A stretch of DNA of 33,900 nucleotides from contig JBGAQA010000076.1 of NCBI GenBank assembly GCA_044220955.1, forward strand, positions 1 through 33,900, in the 5' to 3' direction. This document shows, piece by piece, positions 12,498 to 20,372 of this stretch. Position 1 is the stretch's first letter. Every line of letters starts with the position of its first letter. Position numbers and translations under genes: made by a program. The stretch is from Sandaracinaceae bacterium. GTDB lineage: Bacteria > Myxococcota_A > Polyangia > Polyangiales > Sandaracinaceae. The notes beneath the pieces were generated by a model that did not search any database, had not been told where the DNA came from, and was given only the letters and a program-made list of their open reading frames with translations.

Positions 12498-12878
12498 TCA
12501 GACCTCGATCAGCGCGAGCGTCGGGTCGAGGCGCCGGAGATCCGCGGCGTCCGACGTGGCGATGACGTGACCGCGGGCTCGCGCGCAGAGGACGACCGAG
12601 GCGTCGATCACGTCGTCCGTGCGGCGGACGCCACACAGCTGCCCCGCCTCCCTCGCTGCGCGTGCGTCCAGCGGAACGAGCTCGACGGCCTGCGAGTCGG
12701 CGACCAGCCGGGCGAGCGCGACCTGGCGCGCTCCGTCGCGCCACACCTGACCGAGCGAGCCCGCCGGCAGTGCGAGCCGCGCCCTCTTCTCTCTCGCGCG
12801 CTTGATCAGGACAGCCATGCGCCGGTCGCCCTTCTCGAGGGCGATGAGCGCACCGGCGTCGAGCGTGAGCCCGCTCAT
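12498..12878 (-). CDS. PIN-domain (VapC-like) toxin, 126 aa
   Basis: Start ATG 12878 overlapping the antitoxin stop. LTLDAGALIA, DVIDASVV and IATSDAADL carry the conserved PIN acidic residues. Confidence 0.85.
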   Translation of the reverse strand: MSGLTLDAGALIALEKGDRRMAVLIKRAREKRARLALPAGSLGQVWRDGARQVALARLVADSQAVELVPLDARAAREAGQLCGVRRTDDVIDASVVLCARARGHVIATSDAADLRRLDPTLALIEV

Positions 12879-13123
12879 CGCCGAGGCTTCTCGCGGAGCC
12901 CGAGCGCGGCGTCGGCCCAGGCACGCTCCGCCCGCGTCATCGGCCCGCCGCTCGCCGCGAGCATCTCGTCCAGCATCGCGGCCAGCGCGTCGTTCTCTGC
13001 CTGGGCCGCGACCGCCTTCGCGACGTACGCGCTCACGGACGTCGCGCGGCCACGTCGAACCTGCTTTCGCGCGTGCGCGACGAGCGGCTCCGGGAGACTG
13101 ATCGCGATCTTGGCGACGGTCAT
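12875..13123 (-). CDS. ribbon-helix-helix antitoxin (VapB-like), 82 aa
   Basis: MTVAKIAISLPEPLV..VRRGRATSVSAYVAKAV fits an RHH pattern. Directly upstream of and ATGA-coupled to the PIN gene. Confidence 0.8.
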   Translation of the reverse strand: MTVAKIAISLPEPLVAHARKQVRRGRATSVSAYVAKAVAAQAENDALAAMLDEMLAASGGPMTRAERAWADAALGLREKPRR

Positions 13124-13141
13124 ACCGCGCAGGATACCGCG
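13121..13141 (-). promoter_or_regulatory. TA operon -10 box with overlapping direct-repeat operator
   Basis: Minus strand CGCGGTATCCTGCGCGGTATG: CGCGGTAT occurs twice, TATCCT lies 7 nt before the ATG. Confidence 0.55.
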
Positions 13142-13182
13142 TGGCAGCCCGCGTGGCCACGGCGCGGACGGCGACGGACGGC

Positions 13183-13905
13183 TCAGCCGACGACGCCGAG
13201 CGCGCCGCGGCAGTACGGGCAGATCGCGGGCTGGCCGGGCGCGAGCACGACGGAGACGGGCGCGCTGCAGCGCGGGCAGGTCCCCGCCCACTGCCGTCCT
13301 GCGTGGGTGACCGCGTTGCCGCTCAGGATCACGCCGGGCTCGAGGTCGAGGCGCGCGTGGATCAGGCCCCGCTCGACGGCGTCGAGCGCGATCGCCTGCG
13401 CCATCTCGTCGCTCGTGCCGAGCTGCTGGGCGAGGGTGGCAATCGGCAGCCGCGCGTGCGTGTCGCAGAGCGCCTGCACCCGCGTGAGGCGGCGGTTGCG
13501 CCAGAAGAGCCACCCGGTGAGCGCGTACAGCGCGAGGCTGGGCAAGATGCAGACGACGGTGTTGCCGAGGATGCCCTCGCCGAGGTGCCAGGCTGCGTCG
13601 GGCGAGATGTCGCTCGCGCTCACCATCGCCTGCATGGCGATGAAGAGAGCTCCCACCAGCACACCGAAGGTCGCGAGGATGCCGGTCAGGATCGGGCCGG
13701 TGTTGCTCACGCGCGTGCGCGGCGGAGGGAGCGCGGCGAGGCTCGCCAGCGTTCCCGGCGCCGAGACCGGCGGCAGCGGCACGAGCGGTGCGACCAGCGG
13801 CGTCGGGCCGGGGCGCGGAGGCGGGTGCGCGTAGGATCCCCGGCGCTGGGCGACCGCGGCGCGGACGCCGACACCGACGATGAGCCGCAGCAAGCCCAGG
13901 GCCAC
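13183..13905 (-). CDS. membrane protein with winged-helix/PCI-like segment and C-terminal zinc ribbon
   Basis: Likely GTG start at 13905 (TACCGT 6 nt upstream). Two TM helices, LPIATLAQQLG..AVERGLIHARLD, and CPRC..CPYC. Confidence 0.65.
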   Translation of the reverse strand: MALGLLRLIVGVGVRAAVAQRRGSYAHPPPRPGPTPLVAPLVPLPPVSAPGTLASLAALPPPRTRVSNTGPILTGILATFGVLVGALFIAMQAMVSASDISPDAAWHLGEGILGNTVVCILPSLALYALTGWLFWRNRRLTRVQALCDTHARLPIATLAQQLGTSDEMAQAIALDAVERGLIHARLDLEPGVILSGNAVTHAGRQWAGTCPRCSAPVSVVLAPGQPAICPYCRGALGVVG

Positions 13906-13964
13906 GGCCCGACGGTAGCACGCGCTCGATCCGTTCGAGGCGATCAGGCTATCCTGCCTCGGGG

Positions 13965-14363
13965 ATGAGGCGGCACTCGAGAGCACGTGGCGTGGCGCAG
14001 CGAGCGCGGGTGATCCCGGCGCTCCTGTTCGCGCTCGTGTGGCTGCTCGGCTACGAGGTCGTCCCCTTCGCGCACCAGGCGATGCACGCGCACCTCGGCG
14101 CGCACTCGCACGCGAGCGAGGCGCACTGCCACGGCACCTTCTGCCACGGAGACGACGAGGCGCAGCGCCACGGCCCGGCCTCGCCCGACGAGCACGGGCA
14201 GGGCAGCCTCGAGCACCGCGGGGTCGCCGCGCTCGCGCACGAGATCACGATCTTCGTGCCCGAGCTCATGCTCGCGGGAGAGCAGCCGCTCGACGCGGTG
14301 CACGTGGCACGCGTCTCGAGCTTCGAGCGCTGCTCGCCGCCGGCGCGCGGCCCTCCGGTCTGA
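13965..14363 (+). CDS. His-rich DUF2946/CruR-like leader protein with C-terminal RGPP arrest-type motif
   Basis: N-terminal hydrophobic helix, 14 His including HAHLGAHSHASEAHCHGTFCH, ends PPARGPPV*. Sits directly upstream of a TonB-dependent receptor. Confidence 0.75.
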   Translation: MRRHSRARGVAQRARVIPALLFALVWLLGYEVVPFAHQAMHAHLGAHSHASEAHCHGTFCHGDDEAQRHGPASPDEHGQGSLEHRGVAALAHEITIFVPELMLAGEQPLDAVHVARVSSFERCSPPARGPPV

Positions 14364-14391
14364 ATTAGGCGGCCTGCACCTCCGCGATCCT

Positions 14392-14518
14392 CCGGGATCC
14401 CGCTCGCGCAGCGCGCGGACGCCGCTCCGAAATCGGCTCCGCGCGTGAGGACGCGCGCGCTCGTCGCTGCCACCTCCCTCGGCAGCGTGGGCGCGCGGCC
14501 CGCGCACGGGGATCCCGG
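14392..14518 (+). promoter_or_regulatory. structured intergenic RNA between leader ORF and TonB receptor
   Basis: CCGGGATCCC (14392-14401) pairs with GGGATCCCGG (14509-14518), enclosing hairpins 14412-14445 and 14454-14497. Confidence 0.5.
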
Positions 14519-14562
14519 GGAGCGCGCCTCGTCTGGCGTCCGTCCCCGATCGGTTCCCCGCG

Positions 14563-16833
14563 TTGGAAGCAAGGCGTTGGCTCTTGGCGATGTGCATCGC
14601 GCTCGCGATGAGGGCCGAGGTGCGCGCGCAGAACCAGAACGGGAGCGAGAGCGGGAGCGAGAGCGAGAGCGACGGCGACCTCGACGACGACCTCGACGAC
14701 GACGACGACATCGTCTACTCCGCCACCGGCACGGTCGACGCGCGCATCCACGACGCGAGACCCGCCGCGGCGTCGGACTACCGGCTCTCCATCGAGCCTT
14801 TCCGCGCCGTCCCGCGCGCGTCGGCCGAGAGCCTCCTCTCGCTCGCTCCCGGCGTGTTCCTGGTCAACCACGCGGGCACCTATCACTCGAGCACGATCTA
14901 CACGCGCGGCTTCGACGCGGGCGAGGGACAGGACCTCGAGATGCTCGTCGATGGGATCCCCATCAACGAGGTCTCGAACGTCCACCAGCACGGCTACGCG
15001 GACTCGAACTTCCTGATCCCGGAGCTCGTCCTCGCCGTTCGCTTCACCCAGGGCCCCTACGCGCCCGCGCAGGGCGACTTCGCCGTCGCCGGCACCGCCG
15101 AGTACCTGCTCGGGCCCGCGCAGCGCGGCATCACGCTCCGCGGCCAGTACGGGATGTTCGATACGCGGCGCTTGATGCTCTCGTGGGCGCCGGTGCAGGC
15201 GCGGCAGGGCAGCTTCGTCGGGGTCGACCTGCGCGACTCCGCAGGCTACGGCGCGAACCGCTCGTCGGCGAGCGCCGCGCTGAACGGGCGGCTCGAGCTC
15301 GAGCTGAGCCACGACCTCTCGCTCCACGTCTTCGGCGCCGCGCAGCTCGCCCAGTTCGCGTCCGCGGGGGTCGTGCGCCAGGACAGCGTCGATCTGCGCC
15401 GGCTCTCGTGCGCGCCGAGCTTCGATCCGCAGTTCTTCTGCACCGAAGATCCGAGCCAGGGCGGCCAGAGCCAGCGCGCGCTGCTGTCCGCCGGGCTCAC
15501 CTGGCGCGGCAGCCACGCGCGCTTCGACGTCCTGCTCTACGGCGGCTACCGCTCGCTGCGCGTTCGCGAGAACTTCACCGGCATGTCGCGCGACATGCGC
15601 GGCGACGGGCAGGACGAGCAATACCAGGTCGCCACCGTCGGGCTCACGGCCCGCTATCGTTTCGAGGGCGAGATCCTCGGGCGCATGCAGCAGTTCGAGA
15701 TCGGCGTCTCCGCGCGCCACGACTCGGGCGTGACACGCCAGCTCCGCGTGCGCGCATTCACCGGTGTGCCCTACGCGGCGACGTTCGACGACGACATCCA
15801 CGTCACGCGCGTCGGGGCGCACCTCGGCGGGGACCTCTCGCTCGCCGACTGGCTCTCCCTGCACCTGGGCGCCCGCGCCGACGTGTTCGCGTTCGGCGTC
15901 GTCGATCACGCCTTCCCCGCGAGCGACGGGACGGGCGCGCGCTTGCCCGAGCAGGCGACCGACGCGTTCGGCGTCGTGCTGCAGCCGCGCGGCACGCTGC
16001 GCGTCCGTCTCGCGGAGCTCGCGCCCGCGAGCGAGCGCGGTGCATCGTCGTTCGAGTGGCAGACGAGCGCGGGCGTCGGCACGCGCAGCTCGGACGCGGC
16101 GCGCCTCTCCGAGGGCGAGCTCACGCCCTTCGCGCAGGTGATCTCGGCCGAGACCGGCCTCGTGCTCACCTCGCACGCCGATGCCGACCTCGACGTCGAC
16201 GCGCGCGCGGTGGGCTTCCACACGCACGTCGACCACGACCTCGTCTTCGATCCGGCCGCTGCGCGCAACGTCGATCAGGGAGCGACGAGCCGCCTGGGCG
16301 TCTCGGCGTACCTGAACGTGCGCGCGTGGCAGTGGCTCTCGGCCGCCGCGAGCTTCTCGTACACCGAGGCGTACCTCGACACGCCGGGCTACACCGACTT
16401 CGTCTCGAGCACGCGCCTGCCCTACGTGCCGCGCTGGGCCTCGCGCCTCGACGCCGCGGGCACGCGCTCGATCCAGATCGACGGTGAGTCGGTCGCGATC
16501 ACCATCGGCGCCGGCGTCGGCTGGCTCGGGGAGCGCCCGATCCCCCTCGGGCAGGTCGCGCCGCAGGTGCTGCTGCTCGACGCGCAGCTGGCCGTCGAGT
16601 GGCGCGGCGTCGAGCTCGCCGTGATCGGTCAGAACCTCACCGACGCGCGCTGGCAGTCGAGCGTGTTCAACCAGGTGTCCTGGTTCGACGCGTCGCTGCC
16701 CGAGAGCCGCACCCCGGAATTCACGTTCGCGGCGGGCCCTCCGCTCTCGATCACGGGCCGCCTCACCGTCCGCCTCGACGAGACGGCGATCTTCGCGGGC
16801 TCGCCCGCGCCTGCCACGGAGCCTGCTCGATGA
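14563..16833 (+). CDS. TonB-dependent outer-membrane receptor (MxcH-like plug family)
   Basis: Signal peptide and acidic N-terminal linker. Plug motif LLSLAPGV..IYTRGFDAGEGQDLEMLVDGIPINEVSNVHQHGYADSNFLIPELV..GPY..GDFAVAG. C-terminal QNLTDARW..GPPLSITGRLTVRL. Start is TTG 14563 or ATG 14590. Confidence 0.92.
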   Translation: MEARRWLLAMCIALAMRAEVRAQNQNGSESGSESESDGDLDDDLDDDDDIVYSATGTVDARIHDARPAAASDYRLSIEPFRAVPRASAESLLSLAPGVFLVNHAGTYHSSTIYTRGFDAGEGQDLEMLVDGIPINEVSNVHQHGYADSNFLIPELVLAVRFTQGPYAPAQGDFAVAGTAEYLLGPAQRGITLRGQYGMFDTRRLMLSWAPVQARQGSFVGVDLRDSAGYGANRSSASAALNGRLELELSHDLSLHVFGAAQLAQFASAGVVRQDSVDLRRLSCAPSFDPQFFCTEDPSQGGQSQRALLSAGLTWRGSHARFDVLLYGGYRSLRVRENFTGMSRDMRGDGQDEQYQVATVGLTARYRFEGEILGRMQQFEIGVSARHDSGVTRQLRVRAFTGVPYAATFDDDIHVTRVGAHLGGDLSLADWLSLHLGARADVFAFGVVDHAFPASDGTGARLPEQATDAFGVVLQPRGTLRVRLAELAPASERGASSFEWQTSAGVGTRSSDAARLSEGELTPFAQVISAETGLVLTSHADADLDVDARAVGFHTHVDHDLVFDPAAARNVDQGATSRLGVSAYLNVRAWQWLSAAASFSYTEAYLDTPGYTDFVSSTRLPYVPRWASRLDAAGTRSIQIDGESVAITIGAGVGWLGERPIPLGQVAPQVLLLDAQLAVEWRGVELAVIGQNLTDARWQSSVFNQVSWFDASLPESRTPEFTFAAGPPLSITGRLTVRLDETAIFAGSPAPATEPAR

Positions 16834-17621
16834 GACACGCACCTCTTCTCTTCGCCGCGCTCGCGATCACCGGAGCGAGCTTCGCCGCTTGCGGGGTCAC
16901 GCCAGGGCGCGCGATCGCGGTCACCTTCACCGCGGAAGGCGCCCTTCCCGACTTCGAGACGGCCGCGGGCTGGCGCGTCCACCTGACCCAGGCGTGGATG
17001 TCGATCGGTCCGATCTACGTGCTCGCTCCGGCCGCCCAGACCGCGCGGCTCGATCGACTTCGAGCCCTGGTGCTCCCGATCGCGCGCGCGCACGGCGGTC
17101 ACGACGACTTCGCGGCGCTCGCCGTGCGCGCGGAGTGGCTCGACGAGCGCGTCGTCGACCTGCTCGGAGGTCCGGTCGTGCTCGGCGAGGGAGATGGCAG
17201 CGCGGGCCAGGCCGAGTCCACGACCGTCGAGCTCGCGGTCCCCGCGGACGCGGCGGGACCCACGCGCGGGCACGTCGCGTGGGTCGCGGGCGTCGCGACG
17301 CCGCTCGCGGGAGGCGCGGAGGTCGCCTTCGAGGGCGGCCTCGACGTCGCGCCGGACACGGTCGGCAGCGCGGTCGAGTCGGTCGCGAGCGCGTTCGCCA
17401 TGGACGCGAGCGGAACGCTCGCGCTCTCGATCCACGCGGACGGCCGAGGCGGCGCTGCCCCTTCGTGGCTGGAGCAGGCCCACTTCGACCGTCTACCGCT
17501 GCCCGCGACGGGCACCGTCCGCTCCCTCGCTCCGGGGACGCAGCCTTACGTCGCGTGGTATCTCGCCGCGCGCGACGCCGCCGCGTTCCGCACGGCGTAC
17601 GCGCCGGGGGCCGAGCCATGA
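16830..17621 (+). CDS. lipoprotein with HGGH motif, TonB-receptor associated (263 aa)
   Basis: ATGA-coupled to the receptor. Lipobox FAAC, FETAAGWRVHLTQAWMSIGPIY, IARAHGGHDD. Confidence 0.75.
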   Translation: MRHAPLLFAALAITGASFAACGVTPGRAIAVTFTAEGALPDFETAAGWRVHLTQAWMSIGPIYVLAPAAQTARLDRLRALVLPIARAHGGHDDFAALAVRAEWLDERVVDLLGGPVVLGEGDGSAGQAESTTVELAVPADAAGPTRGHVAWVAGVATPLAGGAEVAFEGGLDVAPDTVGSAVESVASAFAMDASGTLALSIHADGRGGAAPSWLEQAHFDRLPLPATGTVRSLAPGTQPYVAWYLAARDAAAFRTAYAPGAEP

Positions 17622-18535
17622 GCCGCCTCCTCGCGCTCGGTCTCGTCGTCGTCGCGGGGTGCGGCAGCCGAGGCGCCGCGGGGACGCTGCGGATCGCGGC
17701 GAGCGGCGAGCAAGCGGCCGTGGACGGCTATCCCAGCTCGACCGGTGTCGCGTTCGTCGATGGCTGGACCTTGGCCTTCGACTTCGTCCTGGTCTCGCTC
17801 GATGCCCTCTACGTACGTCGCGGCGGCACCGGGCCGACGCTCGAGGCGGACGCCGTCGTGGTCGATCTCCACGACGCCGTCCGACAGGATGTCTGGACGT
17901 TTCCCGCGCTACCCGCCCAGCGCTACGAAGACGTAGGCTACGAGATCGCAGCTCCGACGGCGTCGAGCCGACCCATCGGATCGGTCACGGACGTGCAGAT
18001 CGCGACCATGGTCGCCGGCGGCGTGACGTACTGGCTGCATGGTACGGCGCGCCACCCCGATCACCACGACGTGGTCCTCGACCTCCGGATTCCGACCCAC
18101 GCGGCGATGAGCCGCTGCACGAGCGCGACGGACATGGCCCAGGGTCTCGTCGTCACGCCGAGCGGCACGGCGGACCACACGGTGACCTTCCACCTCGATC
18201 ACGTGTTCTTCGACTCGGTCGTCCTGCCCGAGCCGCACCTGCGCTTCGAGGCGTACGCGGCCGCCGCCGGCGGCGACTTCGTCGTCACCTGGGACGAGCT
18301 CGCCTCTCAGCCGCTCGCGAACCTGCACGACATCGACGGATCGCCCCTGACGGAAGGCGGCCGGCAGATCTTCTACGACCCCGGATCGACGCCGCTCGCG
18401 GTCCAAGACCTTCGTTCGTTCGTCTACCACCAGGCCACCACCCTCGGTCACTTCGACGGCGACGGGCACTGCGACTACGTCTGCGTCGACGCCAGTGGCA
18501 CCGCCCAGCCGGGCTGCCCGGCGCCCGCGCGTTGA
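17618..18535 (+). CDS. lipoprotein, putative metal-binding, TonB-receptor associated (305 aa)
   Basis: ATGA-coupled. Lipobox VAGC, FVDGWTLAFD, TFHLDHVFFD, LGHFDGDGHC. Confidence 0.75.
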   Translation: MSRLLALGLVVVAGCGSRGAAGTLRIAASGEQAAVDGYPSSTGVAFVDGWTLAFDFVLVSLDALYVRRGGTGPTLEADAVVVDLHDAVRQDVWTFPALPAQRYEDVGYEIAAPTASSRPIGSVTDVQIATMVAGGVTYWLHGTARHPDHHDVVLDLRIPTHAAMSRCTSATDMAQGLVVTPSGTADHTVTFHLDHVFFDSVVLPEPHLRFEAYAAAAGGDFVVTWDELASQPLANLHDIDGSPLTEGGRQIFYDPGSTPLAVQDLRSFVYHQATTLGHFDGDGHCDYVCVDASGTAQPGCPAPAR

Positions 18536-18561
18536 GGAGCCCGCGTGCGCCGGACCCCCGA

Positions 18562-19113
18562 TCAGCGGCGCACCGGGTACTTGCTCAGCTTCCGCTGGAG
18601 CGAGCGCCGGTGGACCCCGAGCAGGCGCGCCGCCTGGGACACGTTGCCGCCGCAGTCGGTGAGCACGCGCTGGATGTGCTCCCACTCGATGCGCGCGAGG
18701 CTCGGGACGACGTCGGGCAACGCGAGCGGCGCGGCGCCGGGCGGCTGATCCTTGCGGGCGAACGCCGCGAGGATCTCGTCCACGTCGGCGGGCTTGCTCA
18801 GGTAGTGCGTGGCGCCGAGCCGCACGGCCTCGAGCGCGGTCGCGATGCTGCCGTAGCCCGTGAGCACGACGACGTTGGTGGAGGGATCGATCGCGATGAG
18901 GTCCCGCACGAGCTCGAGCCCCGAGCCTCCGGGCATGCGCAGGTCGACCAGCGCCAGCTCGGGGCTCTCCACGCGGGCGAGGGCGAGGGCCTCCGCGGGC
19001 GAGGGCGCCTGACGTACGTCGTAGCCGCGCTGGATCAGGGCGCGCCCGAGACGCTCGCGAAACGTGTCGTCGTCGTCGACGATCAGGATGGAGACCGACT
19101 CGGACAGGATCAT
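18562..19113 (-). CDS. regA: RegA/PrrA/ActR-family response regulator (183 aa)
   Basis: ILIVDDD, LVDLRMPGGSGL, LTGYGSIATALEAVRLGA, YLSKP and Fis-type HTH SLARIEWEHIQRVL..GNVSQAARLLGVHRRSLQRKL. Start ATG 19113 overlaps the kinase stop. Confidence 0.92.
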   Translation of the reverse strand: MILSESVSILIVDDDDTFRERLGRALIQRGYDVRQAPSPAEALALARVESPELALVDLRMPGGSGLELVRDLIAIDPSTNVVVLTGYGSIATALEAVRLGATHYLSKPADVDEILAAFARKDQPPGAAPLALPDVVPSLARIEWEHIQRVLTDCGGNVSQAARLLGVHRRSLQRKLSKYPVRR

Positions 19114-20372
19114 GGGCTCACCTCCTCCACCGCGACGTCGGGCAGACGGACCGTCACGCGCGTGCCGCGCCCGAGCGTCGAGTCGATCGCCAGCGAGCCA
19201 CCGAGCTGGCTGACGAGCGTGCGGGCGAGGAAGAGGCCCAGGCCCATCCCCCGACCGGGCGGCTTCGTGGTGAAGAAAGGCTCGCCTGCGCGCGCGCGCG
19301 CCTCGGGGCCCATGCCCTCGCCTCGATCGACGACGTCGATCACGAGCGTTCGGCCCGATGCATCGAGCGAGAGCTCGATCCGCCCGTCCTGGCCGCTCGC
19401 GTCGAGCGCGTTTCGCGCCAGGCTCGCGATCACCTGCTCGAGCGCGCGGCGTGGGACGCGGACCTGGCGCTCGGGTGTCGTACAGCGCACGTCGATGCGC
19501 GAGAGGAGCGGCTCGCCCAGATCGCTCAGGCTCGTCGCGAGCTCGCCGATCCGCGTCGGCTCGGCGGCCTCGCCTCGGAGCTCGCCGGAACGAAGCGAGA
19601 GGCGGTCGAGGACGGCGCGGCTGCGCTCGACCTCGCTCCGGACCAGGCGCGCGTCGTCGCGCAGGCTGGCGAGCTCGGGGCGGTCGGCGAGCGCGCGCTC
19701 GAGCTCCGCGGCGACCGTCTTGATGGTGGACAGAGGCGTCGCGAGCTCGTGCGCTGCGCCGGCGGCGAGCGTGGTCAGGCCGAGCAGGCGCGCCGTCTTC
19801 GCCGCGTTCTCGCGCTCGATCGCGAGCGCCCGTGACACCCGGGTCACGAACGCCGCGATCAGTAGCGCCGCGACGGTGAAGGCGAACCACATCCCCTGCA
19901 GGTGCAGCGAGAACGACGCGTCCCCACCGCCTCCACCGTGGTGGTGCGCGTGCGGATCGGCCGGCGCGACGAAGAAGAGCAGGCCGTAGCCGGCGGCCGC
20001 GAGCGCGACGGTCGCCCACGTGTACGCGCCCGGCACGACGACGGCCGCGAGCGTGACGTAGACGAGATACACGATGCTGAACGGGTTCGAGGGCCCACCG
20101 GCGAGCGCGAGCGCGACGGTGAGCAGCACCGTGTCGAGCAGCAGCATCGGGCCGATCGCCTCGCGGCGGGGCCAGCGCGCGAGCGCGGCGTTGGTGACGA
20201 GCGCGAGCGCGAGGATCCCGAGCAGCGGCGCAACCGGCAGCGCGAGGTGGAGCGCGAGCGTCGCCACCGCGAGCGCGGCCCCCTGAGCCAGCACCGCGGC
20301 CCAGCGCAGCCGCACCACCGACGCGACCTCGCTCACGGCCTCGTCATCGTACGTCGTCGCGCGGCCGGCCAC
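19110..20372 (-). CDS. regB: RegB/PrrB/ActS-family membrane sensor histidine kinase
   Basis: LRW near the N-terminus, about 6 TM helices, GGPSNPF motif, HLQGMW, H-box AAGAAHELATPLSTI, NALDA, DRGEGM, GEPFFTTK, GMGLGLFL. Confidence 0.9.
   Translation of the reverse strand: MAGRATTYDDEAVSEVASVVRLRWAAVLAQGAALAVATLALHLALPVAPLLGILALALVTNAALARWPRREAIGPMLLLDTVLLTVALALAGGPSNPFSIVYLVYVTLAAVVVPGAYTWATVALAAAGYGLLFFVAPADPHAHHHGGGGGDASFSLHLQGMWFAFTVAALLIAAFVTRVSRALAIERENAAKTARLLGLTTLAAGAAHELATPLSTIKTVAAELERALADRPELASLRDDARLVRSEVERSRAVLDRLSLRSGELRGEAAEPTRIGELATSLSDLGEPLLSRIDVRCTTPERQVRVPRRALEQVIASLARNALDASGQDGRIELSLDASGRTLVIDVVDRGEGMGPEARARAGEPFFTTKPPGRGMGLGLFLARTLVSQLGGSLAIDSTLGRGTRVTVRLPDVAVEEVSP

Follow-up and report, generated by a model that had tools for sequence, protein, structure and literature searches.

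The leader locus and its surroundings

The window, by which we mean the whole analysed stretch of 33,900 nucleotides from a Sandaracinaceae bacterium (contig JBGAQA010000076.1), contains a small, histidine-rich open reading frame that precedes the genes of a TonB-dependent receptor and two lipoproteins. The features are listed below, with the evidence for each in brackets.

13950..13955, forward strand: possible -10-like hexamer TATCCT, 9 nt 5' of the ATG (sequence)
13965..14363, forward strand: leader ORF, predicted arrest peptide, 132 aa (sequence, homologs, conservation)
14013..14069, forward strand: hydrophobic segment, about residues 17-35, with W26-x-x-G29-x-E31-x-x-P34 (hydropathy, conservation)
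14073..14147, forward strand: N-terminal His cluster H37, H41, H47, H49, H56, H61 (alignment)
14193..14216, forward strand: HGQGSLEH (H77-H84), candidate ruler-set sensor (invariant His pair, fixed register)
14217..14345, forward strand: 43-residue spacer, kept in length and free in sequence (homolog comparison)
14346..14357, forward strand: RGPP motif, with predicted P-site Pro130 (14352-14354) and A-site Pro131 (14355-14357) (stall geometry of PMC12992588)
14364..14562, forward strand: GC-rich intergenic region in which neither a terminator nor an Rfam match nor a Zur-type box was found (scans, fold z -0.65)
14563..16833, forward strand: TonB-dependent receptor of the His-rich-plug clade (Pfam Plug and barrel, plug alignment)
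16830..17621, forward strand: lipoprotein 1, 263 aa, with an internal AxA-H[PG]G and an ATGA overlap with the receptor (alignment, no Pfam match)
17618..18535, forward strand: lipoprotein 2, 305 aa, MbnP-like fold, ATGA overlap (AlphaFold2, alignment)

The initial annotation had described an ORF of 132 aa with a basic N-terminus, a single hydrophobic segment, 14 His, the core HAHLGAHSHASEAHCHGTFCH and an RGPP at 14346-14357 that is followed by Val and then TGA, with a TonB receptor downstream; all of this was confirmed, and the receptor matches both the Plug and the barrel models above the Pfam cut-offs. The hydrophobic segment, about residues 16-35 by this count, reaches a Kyte-Doolittle peak of 1.97. 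AlphaFold2 places a helix over residues 5-44 and predicts coil past residue 70 or so, in a model that offers no usable tertiary fold (pTM 0.48). A TAnnnT sequence lies just 5' of the start in the window and in L038, L039, L041, L003 and L053, and a sigma-70 scan found no full promoter; if TATCCT were to serve as a -10 element, the transcript would be leaderless or very short.

Several other genes surround the operon on the reverse strand. A divergent membrane protein (13183 to about 13906), with a winged helix that gave a PCI match and a C-terminal CxxC..CxxC ribbon, starts about 60 nt from the leader, an adjacency that is not kept in homologs. Overlapping ORFs at 12498-13160 look, by inspection, like a toxin-antitoxin pair, the antitoxin being of the ribbon-helix-helix type and the toxin having a PIN domain. 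At 18565-20372 a RegB/RegA-like pair converges on the end of the operon; its regulator consists of a receiver and a Fis helix-turn-helix domain, and the RegB-like sensor kinase was judged by inspection.

A conserved leader family in Myxococcota

The leader ORF is coding, as its GC3 is 0.94 and dN (0.18-0.37) is lower than dS (0.50-0.71) in comparison with each of five close homologs. Of the 9,641 coding-like ORFs in the host genome, 9 carry R[AG]PP no more than 12 residues from the stop codon, and the leader has the top coding score among them, which is more than chance would give.

A word-seeded search recovered 24 homologs. A profile search run against 1.84 billion representatives returned 135, of which 133 were new. 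Among the genomic loci, L106 and L177 are not true leader matches and were excluded from the counts. The named records of the family come from Sandaracinaceae, Polyangiales, Nannocystaceae and other Myxococcota; one member (L066) belongs to Paraliomyxa miuraensis, a cultured myxobacterium. It is present in 48 of 301 genomes of the order (a tally that includes the unpublished genome G123) and in 25 of 401 genomes of the phylum, and is single-copy in the host genome. When all GTDB genomes were scanned with a DNA pattern, 79 matches were obtained: the 32 in records labelled Myxococcota or delta comprised 31 in-frame matches and 30 genuine members, and the 47 in other records comprised 14 in-frame matches, as many as expected by chance, and a single genuine member. 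The leader ORF is genuine and is a member of a family of Myxococcota.

Across 93 aligned members, P34, H37, H41, H77, H84, R128, P130 and P131 are invariant (100%). Other positions of the hydrophobic segment are strongly conserved (W26 in 91%, E31 in 86%), as are the remaining histidines of the N-terminal cluster (H47 98%, H49 97%, H56 87%, H61 92%); the spacing of this cluster from the arrest site varies while the residues themselves are conserved. C55 is kept in 22% of these homologs and C60 in 17%, and judging from the alignment this Cys pair is clade-specific.

The arrest motif and its exchanges

Conservation of the C-terminal motif, on which the initial annotation had staked its reading, extends well beyond the close relatives: R[AG]PP stands within 12 residues of the end in 114 of 133 new distant homologs, as RGPP in 89 and RAPP in 25. 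The motif codons vary synonymously over 56 loci (L108 was dropped). The 24 close homologs end in RGPP (20), TGPP (3) or RAPP (1), always in the same register. According to PMC12992588, RGPP stalls the ribosome with Pro in both the P and the A site, and its arrest is the most robust among such motifs.

A sister family, carried by Archangium-labelled and other Myxococcales metagenome-assembled genomes, aligns to the leader family with an hhalign probability of 96.9%. Its 37 endings are QAP in 34 cases, GAP in one and QAPP in two, and its spacer is 43 residues long in 36 of 37; H77 can be absent. At the DNA level, Q[AG]P followed directly by a stop codon was found in 14 of 14 loci (11 QAP, 3 QGP), and where the contig allows, these loci precede the same receptor or lipoprotein clade. 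Since Q[AG]P is followed by the stop codon at the same register, the stop codon takes the place of the A-site Pro. The endings would comprise a set for elongation arrest (RGPP, RAPP, TGPP, QAPP) and one for termination arrest (Q[AG]P-stop). QAPP, NAP-stop and NSP-stop have been reported to arrest ribosomes in vitro, with TGPP among the listed motifs (PMC10987492). This exchange is the strongest evidence that a positioned stall is the conserved property, and we regard it as very likely that the leader is a functional arrest peptide.

A histidine pair at a fixed distance from the predicted stall site

In the initial annotation, a spacer of about 45 residues was thought to run from the poly-His/CxxxxC core to the motif, so that the core would be the element whose distance is set by the ribosomal tunnel. 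Such a spacer does not start at the core, because H61 and C60 lie 66 and 67 residues before R128; the residue that lies 43 before it is H84. The distance between the HCHGxxCH core and the arginine varies from 61 to 80 among homologs, and the two cysteines are retained in the minority noted above. The expectation of a conserved spacing between R[AG]PP and histidine thus holds for H84 (43 in 24 of 24 close homologs) and fails for the core. Among the 114 motif-bearing matches, His is found at -51 in 97 and at -44 in 102, and at the leader loci the spacing is typically 43-44. As a control for profile selection, we took the 27 matches whose single best stretch ended before position 100; of these, 17 carried the motif and were of sufficient length, and R-x-P-P followed 43-44 residues later in 17 of 17. 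Because the spacing from H84 is fixed and that from the core is variable, the ruler-set element is HGxxSLxH, and its pair H77/H84, rather than the HCHGTFCH core, is the candidate sensor. The CxxxxC sensor was ruled out by its clade-specific cysteines and variable spacing.

HGxxSLxH occupies a position close to that of the CXXC in CruR and in DUF2946 matches of the host phylum. Membership in DUF2946, for which an HMM search had been suggested as a check, was not borne out: the leader scores 13.9 bits (E 0.095, residues 21-131) against a PF11162 gathering score of 23.7, and none of 136 homologs exceeds that score (20 at E <= 0.1, the best at 20.8 bits). Alignment with hhalign to a 7-sequence DUF2946-like alignment gave a probability of 11.5% over just 49 C-terminal columns. 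CXXC is absent from the leader and from the 133 distant homologs, and none of the 114 motif-bearing homologs has a Cys between -38 and -62. Membership in this family was rejected on the Pfam cut-off and the missing CXXC.

The downstream operon

The operon was evaluated at 54 of 57 distinct leader loci, three being too short downstream. The first gene after the leader encodes a member of the receptor clade in 43, a lipoprotein in 8 and another protein in 3, which indicates by gene order that the leader stands first in a conserved operon whose other genes encode a TonB receptor and two lipoproteins (51 of 54). Seven loci (L058, L061, L066, L074, L108, L175, L176) are rearranged, so that leader and receptor gene lie on opposite strands; in five of them the leader stands at the head of the lipoprotein genes, and in two a receptor is present on both sides. 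At L045, a paralog of the leader precedes an outer-membrane barrel of the MetA-pathway type (PF13557) and not the receptor.

The receptor start in the window is uncertain (14533 CTG, 14563 TTG, 14584 TTG or 14590 ATG), so the gap between leader and receptor is about 170-225 nt depending on the start chosen. The plug domain follows the pattern ..RGFDA.....D....H.HGY.D..F.IPE. A search of PDB sequences gave a weak match to the colicin I receptor alone, and no OprC-type match was found.

Lipoprotein 1, whose alignment and profile contain a first row in the wrong frame, has a conserved internal hydrophobic stretch together with AxA-H[PG]G, reminiscent of a signal-peptidase site whose cleavage would leave His at the N-terminus; the mature receptors of the QAP-stop family likewise start with His. 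The model of lipoprotein 2 (AlphaFold2, pLDDT 95.2) resembles the fold of MbnP (7l6g), with a Z score of 10.0 and an rmsd of 3.6 over 192 aligned residues at 11% identity, the next structure having a Z of 6.1. MbnP is also found at Foldseek rank 2 (E 0.014) and is the nearest named atlas cluster (0.90, at a low recognition score). The two differ in that lipoprotein 2 has no Pfam MbnP match and no WxW, and carries conserved HxDH and GHxxGxGHC motifs. WxW is the copper site of MbnP.

The composition of the operon bears on a reading in which the arrest peptide monitors membrane targeting or Sec pulling, by the logic of SecM and ApdP, and its histidines are incidental. RAPP/RGPP peptides are indeed best known as Sec/YidC monitors in the literature consulted, and the membrane helix of the leader is conserved, yet no sec or yidC genes lie downstream and such a monitor would not need invariant His at a fixed register, which makes it improbable here.

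A second class of leaders was observed before paralogous receptors (L348, L360, L370, L372, L388, L389, L391, L392, L396 and L398; L188 and L190-L192). These start with a hydrophobic stretch, often contain HxxCxEHGELVH, have a His/Cys patch some 50 residues before the C-terminus and finish in APK[TNSQA]SPP, a candidate new arrest motif. In Bacteroidota, small hydrophobic ORFs rich in His or Cys often lie ahead of the receptor clade; they end in xPP (FQPP, PTPPP, YPPP) and not in RGPP (L199, L202, L209, L210, L213, L219, L229, L233, L235, L240, L256, L261).

The metal

The palindrome TGCAAC-N3-GTTGCA is the predicted Zur site before znuABC in Desulfovibrio (PMC545781). A box with at most one mismatch to it precedes 6 of 82 leaderless receptor loci, and with at most two mismatches 13, related loci being counted separately; 69 of the 82 have none. 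None of 10 leader loci and none of 92 coding controls has it at one mismatch or fewer; a single two-mismatch site lies inside a leader ORF. Among 20 loci examined for Fur-family neighbours, five of them picked for that proximity, 10 have a Fur-family gene beside the receptor/lipoprotein clade (one of the 10, L169, being a leader locus) and 14 have boxes. Boxes also flank CobW_C, DUF1826 and WD40 genes (L436, by Pfam) and a COG0523-like gene (L440, by inspection), types that have been linked to Zur (PMC2770081). It speaks against zinc that the Fur-family gene of L433 and L438 has CusF and a heavy-metal P-type ATPase as neighbours. A Myxococcota subfamily of Fur-family proteins has boxes at or near its own gene (L378, L379, L429, L430, L433, L434, L437, L438, L441) and is, by this arrangement, a candidate myxobacterial Zur.

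With a profile built from 13 foreign boxes, the best site in the 7.5-Mb host genome (C122:70465, score 19.2) precedes a leaderless paralogous operon, a receptor with two lipoproteins at C122:70353-74700, and the score in the window is at most 2.4 across 13400-14700. Also against zinc are the 69 leaderless loci that have no box and the host assembly, 88% complete, in which neither ZnuA nor a Zur-like gene was found. Zinc is the best guess on an indirect ground, namely that the leaderless relatives of the receptor adjoin a Fur-family repressor and predicted Zur-type boxes. A His-dependent metal response of the leader seems likely, and zinc as the main signal has a somewhat better than even chance of being correct.

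The same arrest switch might instead respond to nickel or cobalt, for which the all-His ligand set would be suitable. HupE/UreJ_2 and NiCoT-like genes adjoin the receptor clade in Bacteroidota (8 and 2 neighbouring ORFs, respectively, over 80 loci), a NicO/UreH-like gene was recognized by inspection in a boxed cluster (L440), and NikR_C was not found in the host. However, the box fits the predicted Zur site and not a NikR site, the boxed clusters contain CobW_C and DUF1826, and no nickel or cobalt marker was present among 126 neighbour proteins scanned, mostly at leader loci, so that we consider this signal unlikely.

Copper would be expected if the leader were a diverged CruR that binds Cu(II) through His in place of CXXC. 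The similarity to DUF2946, sub-threshold as it is, runs over the full length; the fold of a downstream protein is that of MbnP, MauG/MbnH-like peroxidase genes are located near L049 and L180, and MbnPH-like genes occur in CruR operons (PMC9426467). Against copper are the count of CXXC motifs (0 of 133 homologs), a receptor without an OprC-type match, a second lipoprotein without WxW and the Zur-type boxes of the sister operons. The 126 neighbour proteins scanned include MauG-like genes near two loci and one DUF1775; the other copper families of the CruR type are absent from them. Continued copper sensing is a rather remote prospect.

The output step

CruR acts through Rho-dependent transcription termination (PMC9426467), an output that the analogy drawn in the initial annotation would extend to the leader. 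In the host, the Rho model matches other ATPases alone (77 bits against a cut-off of 509), and the Rho RNA-binding domain was not found in 31 of 31 relatives. Rho was not found in any of 36 same-order leader carriers, complete genomes included; overall, it is present in 7 of 46 carriers and was not found in 39, while 95 of 151 genomes of the phylum score above the cut-off. Because of the 39 carriers in which Rho was not found, the output of CruR probably cannot apply to the leader, and this part of the analogy is not sustained in the host lineage. Counting the leader-carrying genomes of the host's family or its sister family, several of them complete, Rho was found in 0 of 35. Haliangium has been listed as lacking Rho in PMC11347177, and Sandaracinus, which appears there in the dataset table only and failed the conservative filter, is uninformative; the loss of Rho may be lineage-wide and extend beyond the published case. 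As Rho appears to be missing, the output would have to be Rho-independent.

No intrinsic terminator was detected in the leader-receptor region, and the intergenic sequence folds no better than shuffled versions. A riboswitch or other known RNA was rejected, as no Rfam match exists across 13500-19000. A C>G skew was set aside as a rut signal, since with a Pro-rich spacer and no Rho found it carries no information. Occlusion of the ribosome-binding site was evaluated, with guessed starts, at 26 related loci retained by a filter for a plausible Shine-Dalgarno sequence and a gap no longer than 135 nt, and showed a weak trend (ddG 1.96 against 0.95 kcal/mol for shuffled sequences, p=0.056, n=26); in the window, neither occlusion nor an anti-Shine-Dalgarno role of the stall codons found support.

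These results, with no clear RNA switch and no Rho found, would suit a small membrane-anchored protein that binds metal as a chaperone or store for the receptor, its C-terminal motif causing a minor pause without regulatory output, and the N-terminal His cluster, invariant at a free distance from the C-terminus, would fit such a role. What such a protein leaves unaccounted for is a spacer fixed in length and free in sequence, a motif whose variants all belong to known arrest motifs, some with a stop codon at the A-site position, the predicted coil beyond about residue 70 and the depletion of RGPP in Myxococcota proteomes (bias 0.29); it thus has little probability.

A model for the leader and its wider meaning

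The explanation that we prefer, and consider probable, is that the leader is a metal-responsive arrest peptide, most likely for zinc, that controls a metal-import operon. When the metal is scarce, the ribosome would remain stalled at Pro130/Pro131 and the operon would be expressed. H77 and H84, just outside the tunnel at 46-53 residues from the P site, would bind the metal when it is available, probably joined by H37, H41, H47 and H49 behind the membrane helix; metal-driven folding would then pull the nascent chain free, and expression would drop. The output is the least certain step and might consist of local RNA remodelling at the receptor start, protection of the mRNA or another Rho-independent route.

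A more ambitious proposal, which we hold tentatively and at less than even odds, is that a ribosome-based zinc sensor replaces Zur, the folding of a nascent chain with a cysteine-free His ruler releasing elongation or termination arrest. The leader would then control, without Rho, the importer that stands under a Zur-type operator in other myxobacteria, through an output new to metal leaders; if Rho is truly absent, that output differs from the one used by CruR. The leader family provides a natural comparative set, with an invariant His pair, a fixed ruler, five interchangeable endings and sister operons under a Zur-type operator, which makes it possible to ask whether zinc can be sensed by a nascent chain and how metal binding is turned into a pulling force.

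Comparison with known arrest leaders

RAPP/RGPP upstream ORFs before TonB receptors are a published class (PMC12992588), and the leader has its defining properties: fewer than 300 aa, a localisation signal, a near-C-terminal RGPP and a downstream gene of an enriched class, here a TonB receptor. The QAPP, TGPP and xAP-stop endings of the leader and sister families also occur in PMC12992588 and PMC10987492, which, in the parts consulted, describe the class in statistical terms or report tests on examples that are linked to Sec or come from Streptomyces; His/Cys metal sites have been proposed for two Streptomyces RGPP/RAPP members (PMC12992588). The passages and supplements of these two papers that were searched do not describe the His-ruler family, the Zur-box interchange or the Rho-less hosts, and nine supplementary files of PMC12992588 gave no match for the family motif or for Sandaracin/Polyangi; the remaining lists of that paper may contain members of the family. 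Literature searches, weighted toward open-access papers, returned no paper on it.

The tested metal-sensing arrest leaders CruR and CutF rely, as described, on cysteines and copper. CruR (Bp2923, DUF2946/PF11162) heads the cruR-bfrG operon and has 45 residues between its CXXC and the arrest motif (PMC9426467), and its arrest has been toeprinted (PMC12992588). It shares with the leader a small size, an N-terminal hydrophobic segment, a C-terminal RAPP-type motif, metal ligands, putative in the leader, whose distance from that motif is fixed (45 intervening residues in CruR, 43 in the leader) and a long intergenic region followed by a TonB receptor. In contrast to CruR, the leader lacks CXXC and has a His pair with a second His cluster, it precedes a receptor of another clade with MbnP-like lipoproteins and Zur-type links, and Rho, which CruR requires, was not found in most carriers. 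The sequence of the membrane helix is conserved in the leader family and dispensable in CruR; the initial annotation had credited CruR with the use of a membrane-targeting segment, whereas its export signal is dispensable according to Roy et al. and it is CutF that requires its signal. The comparison thus supports the idea of a CruR-like arrest leader in a myxobacterium with His in place of CXXC, probably sensing a metal other than copper, but not the CxxxxC part of the proposed sensor.

CutF of Rhodobacter capsulatus (bioRxiv 10.1101/2025.02.05.636593) resembles the leader, as modelled here, in being an exported leader with metal-dependent stalling, and its Rho-independent control through an mRNA stem-loop is the nearest model for the output step. 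It differs in its CxxxC and PPP motifs, its sensitivity to EF-P and its logic, in which the metal induces stalling and a detoxifying enzyme; the leader would act on an importer, and the occlusion test did not establish a conserved stem-loop of this kind. New relative to both systems are the cysteine-free fixed ruler, the exchange of elongation for termination motifs, the alternation with a Zur-type operator, and hosts in which Rho was not found.
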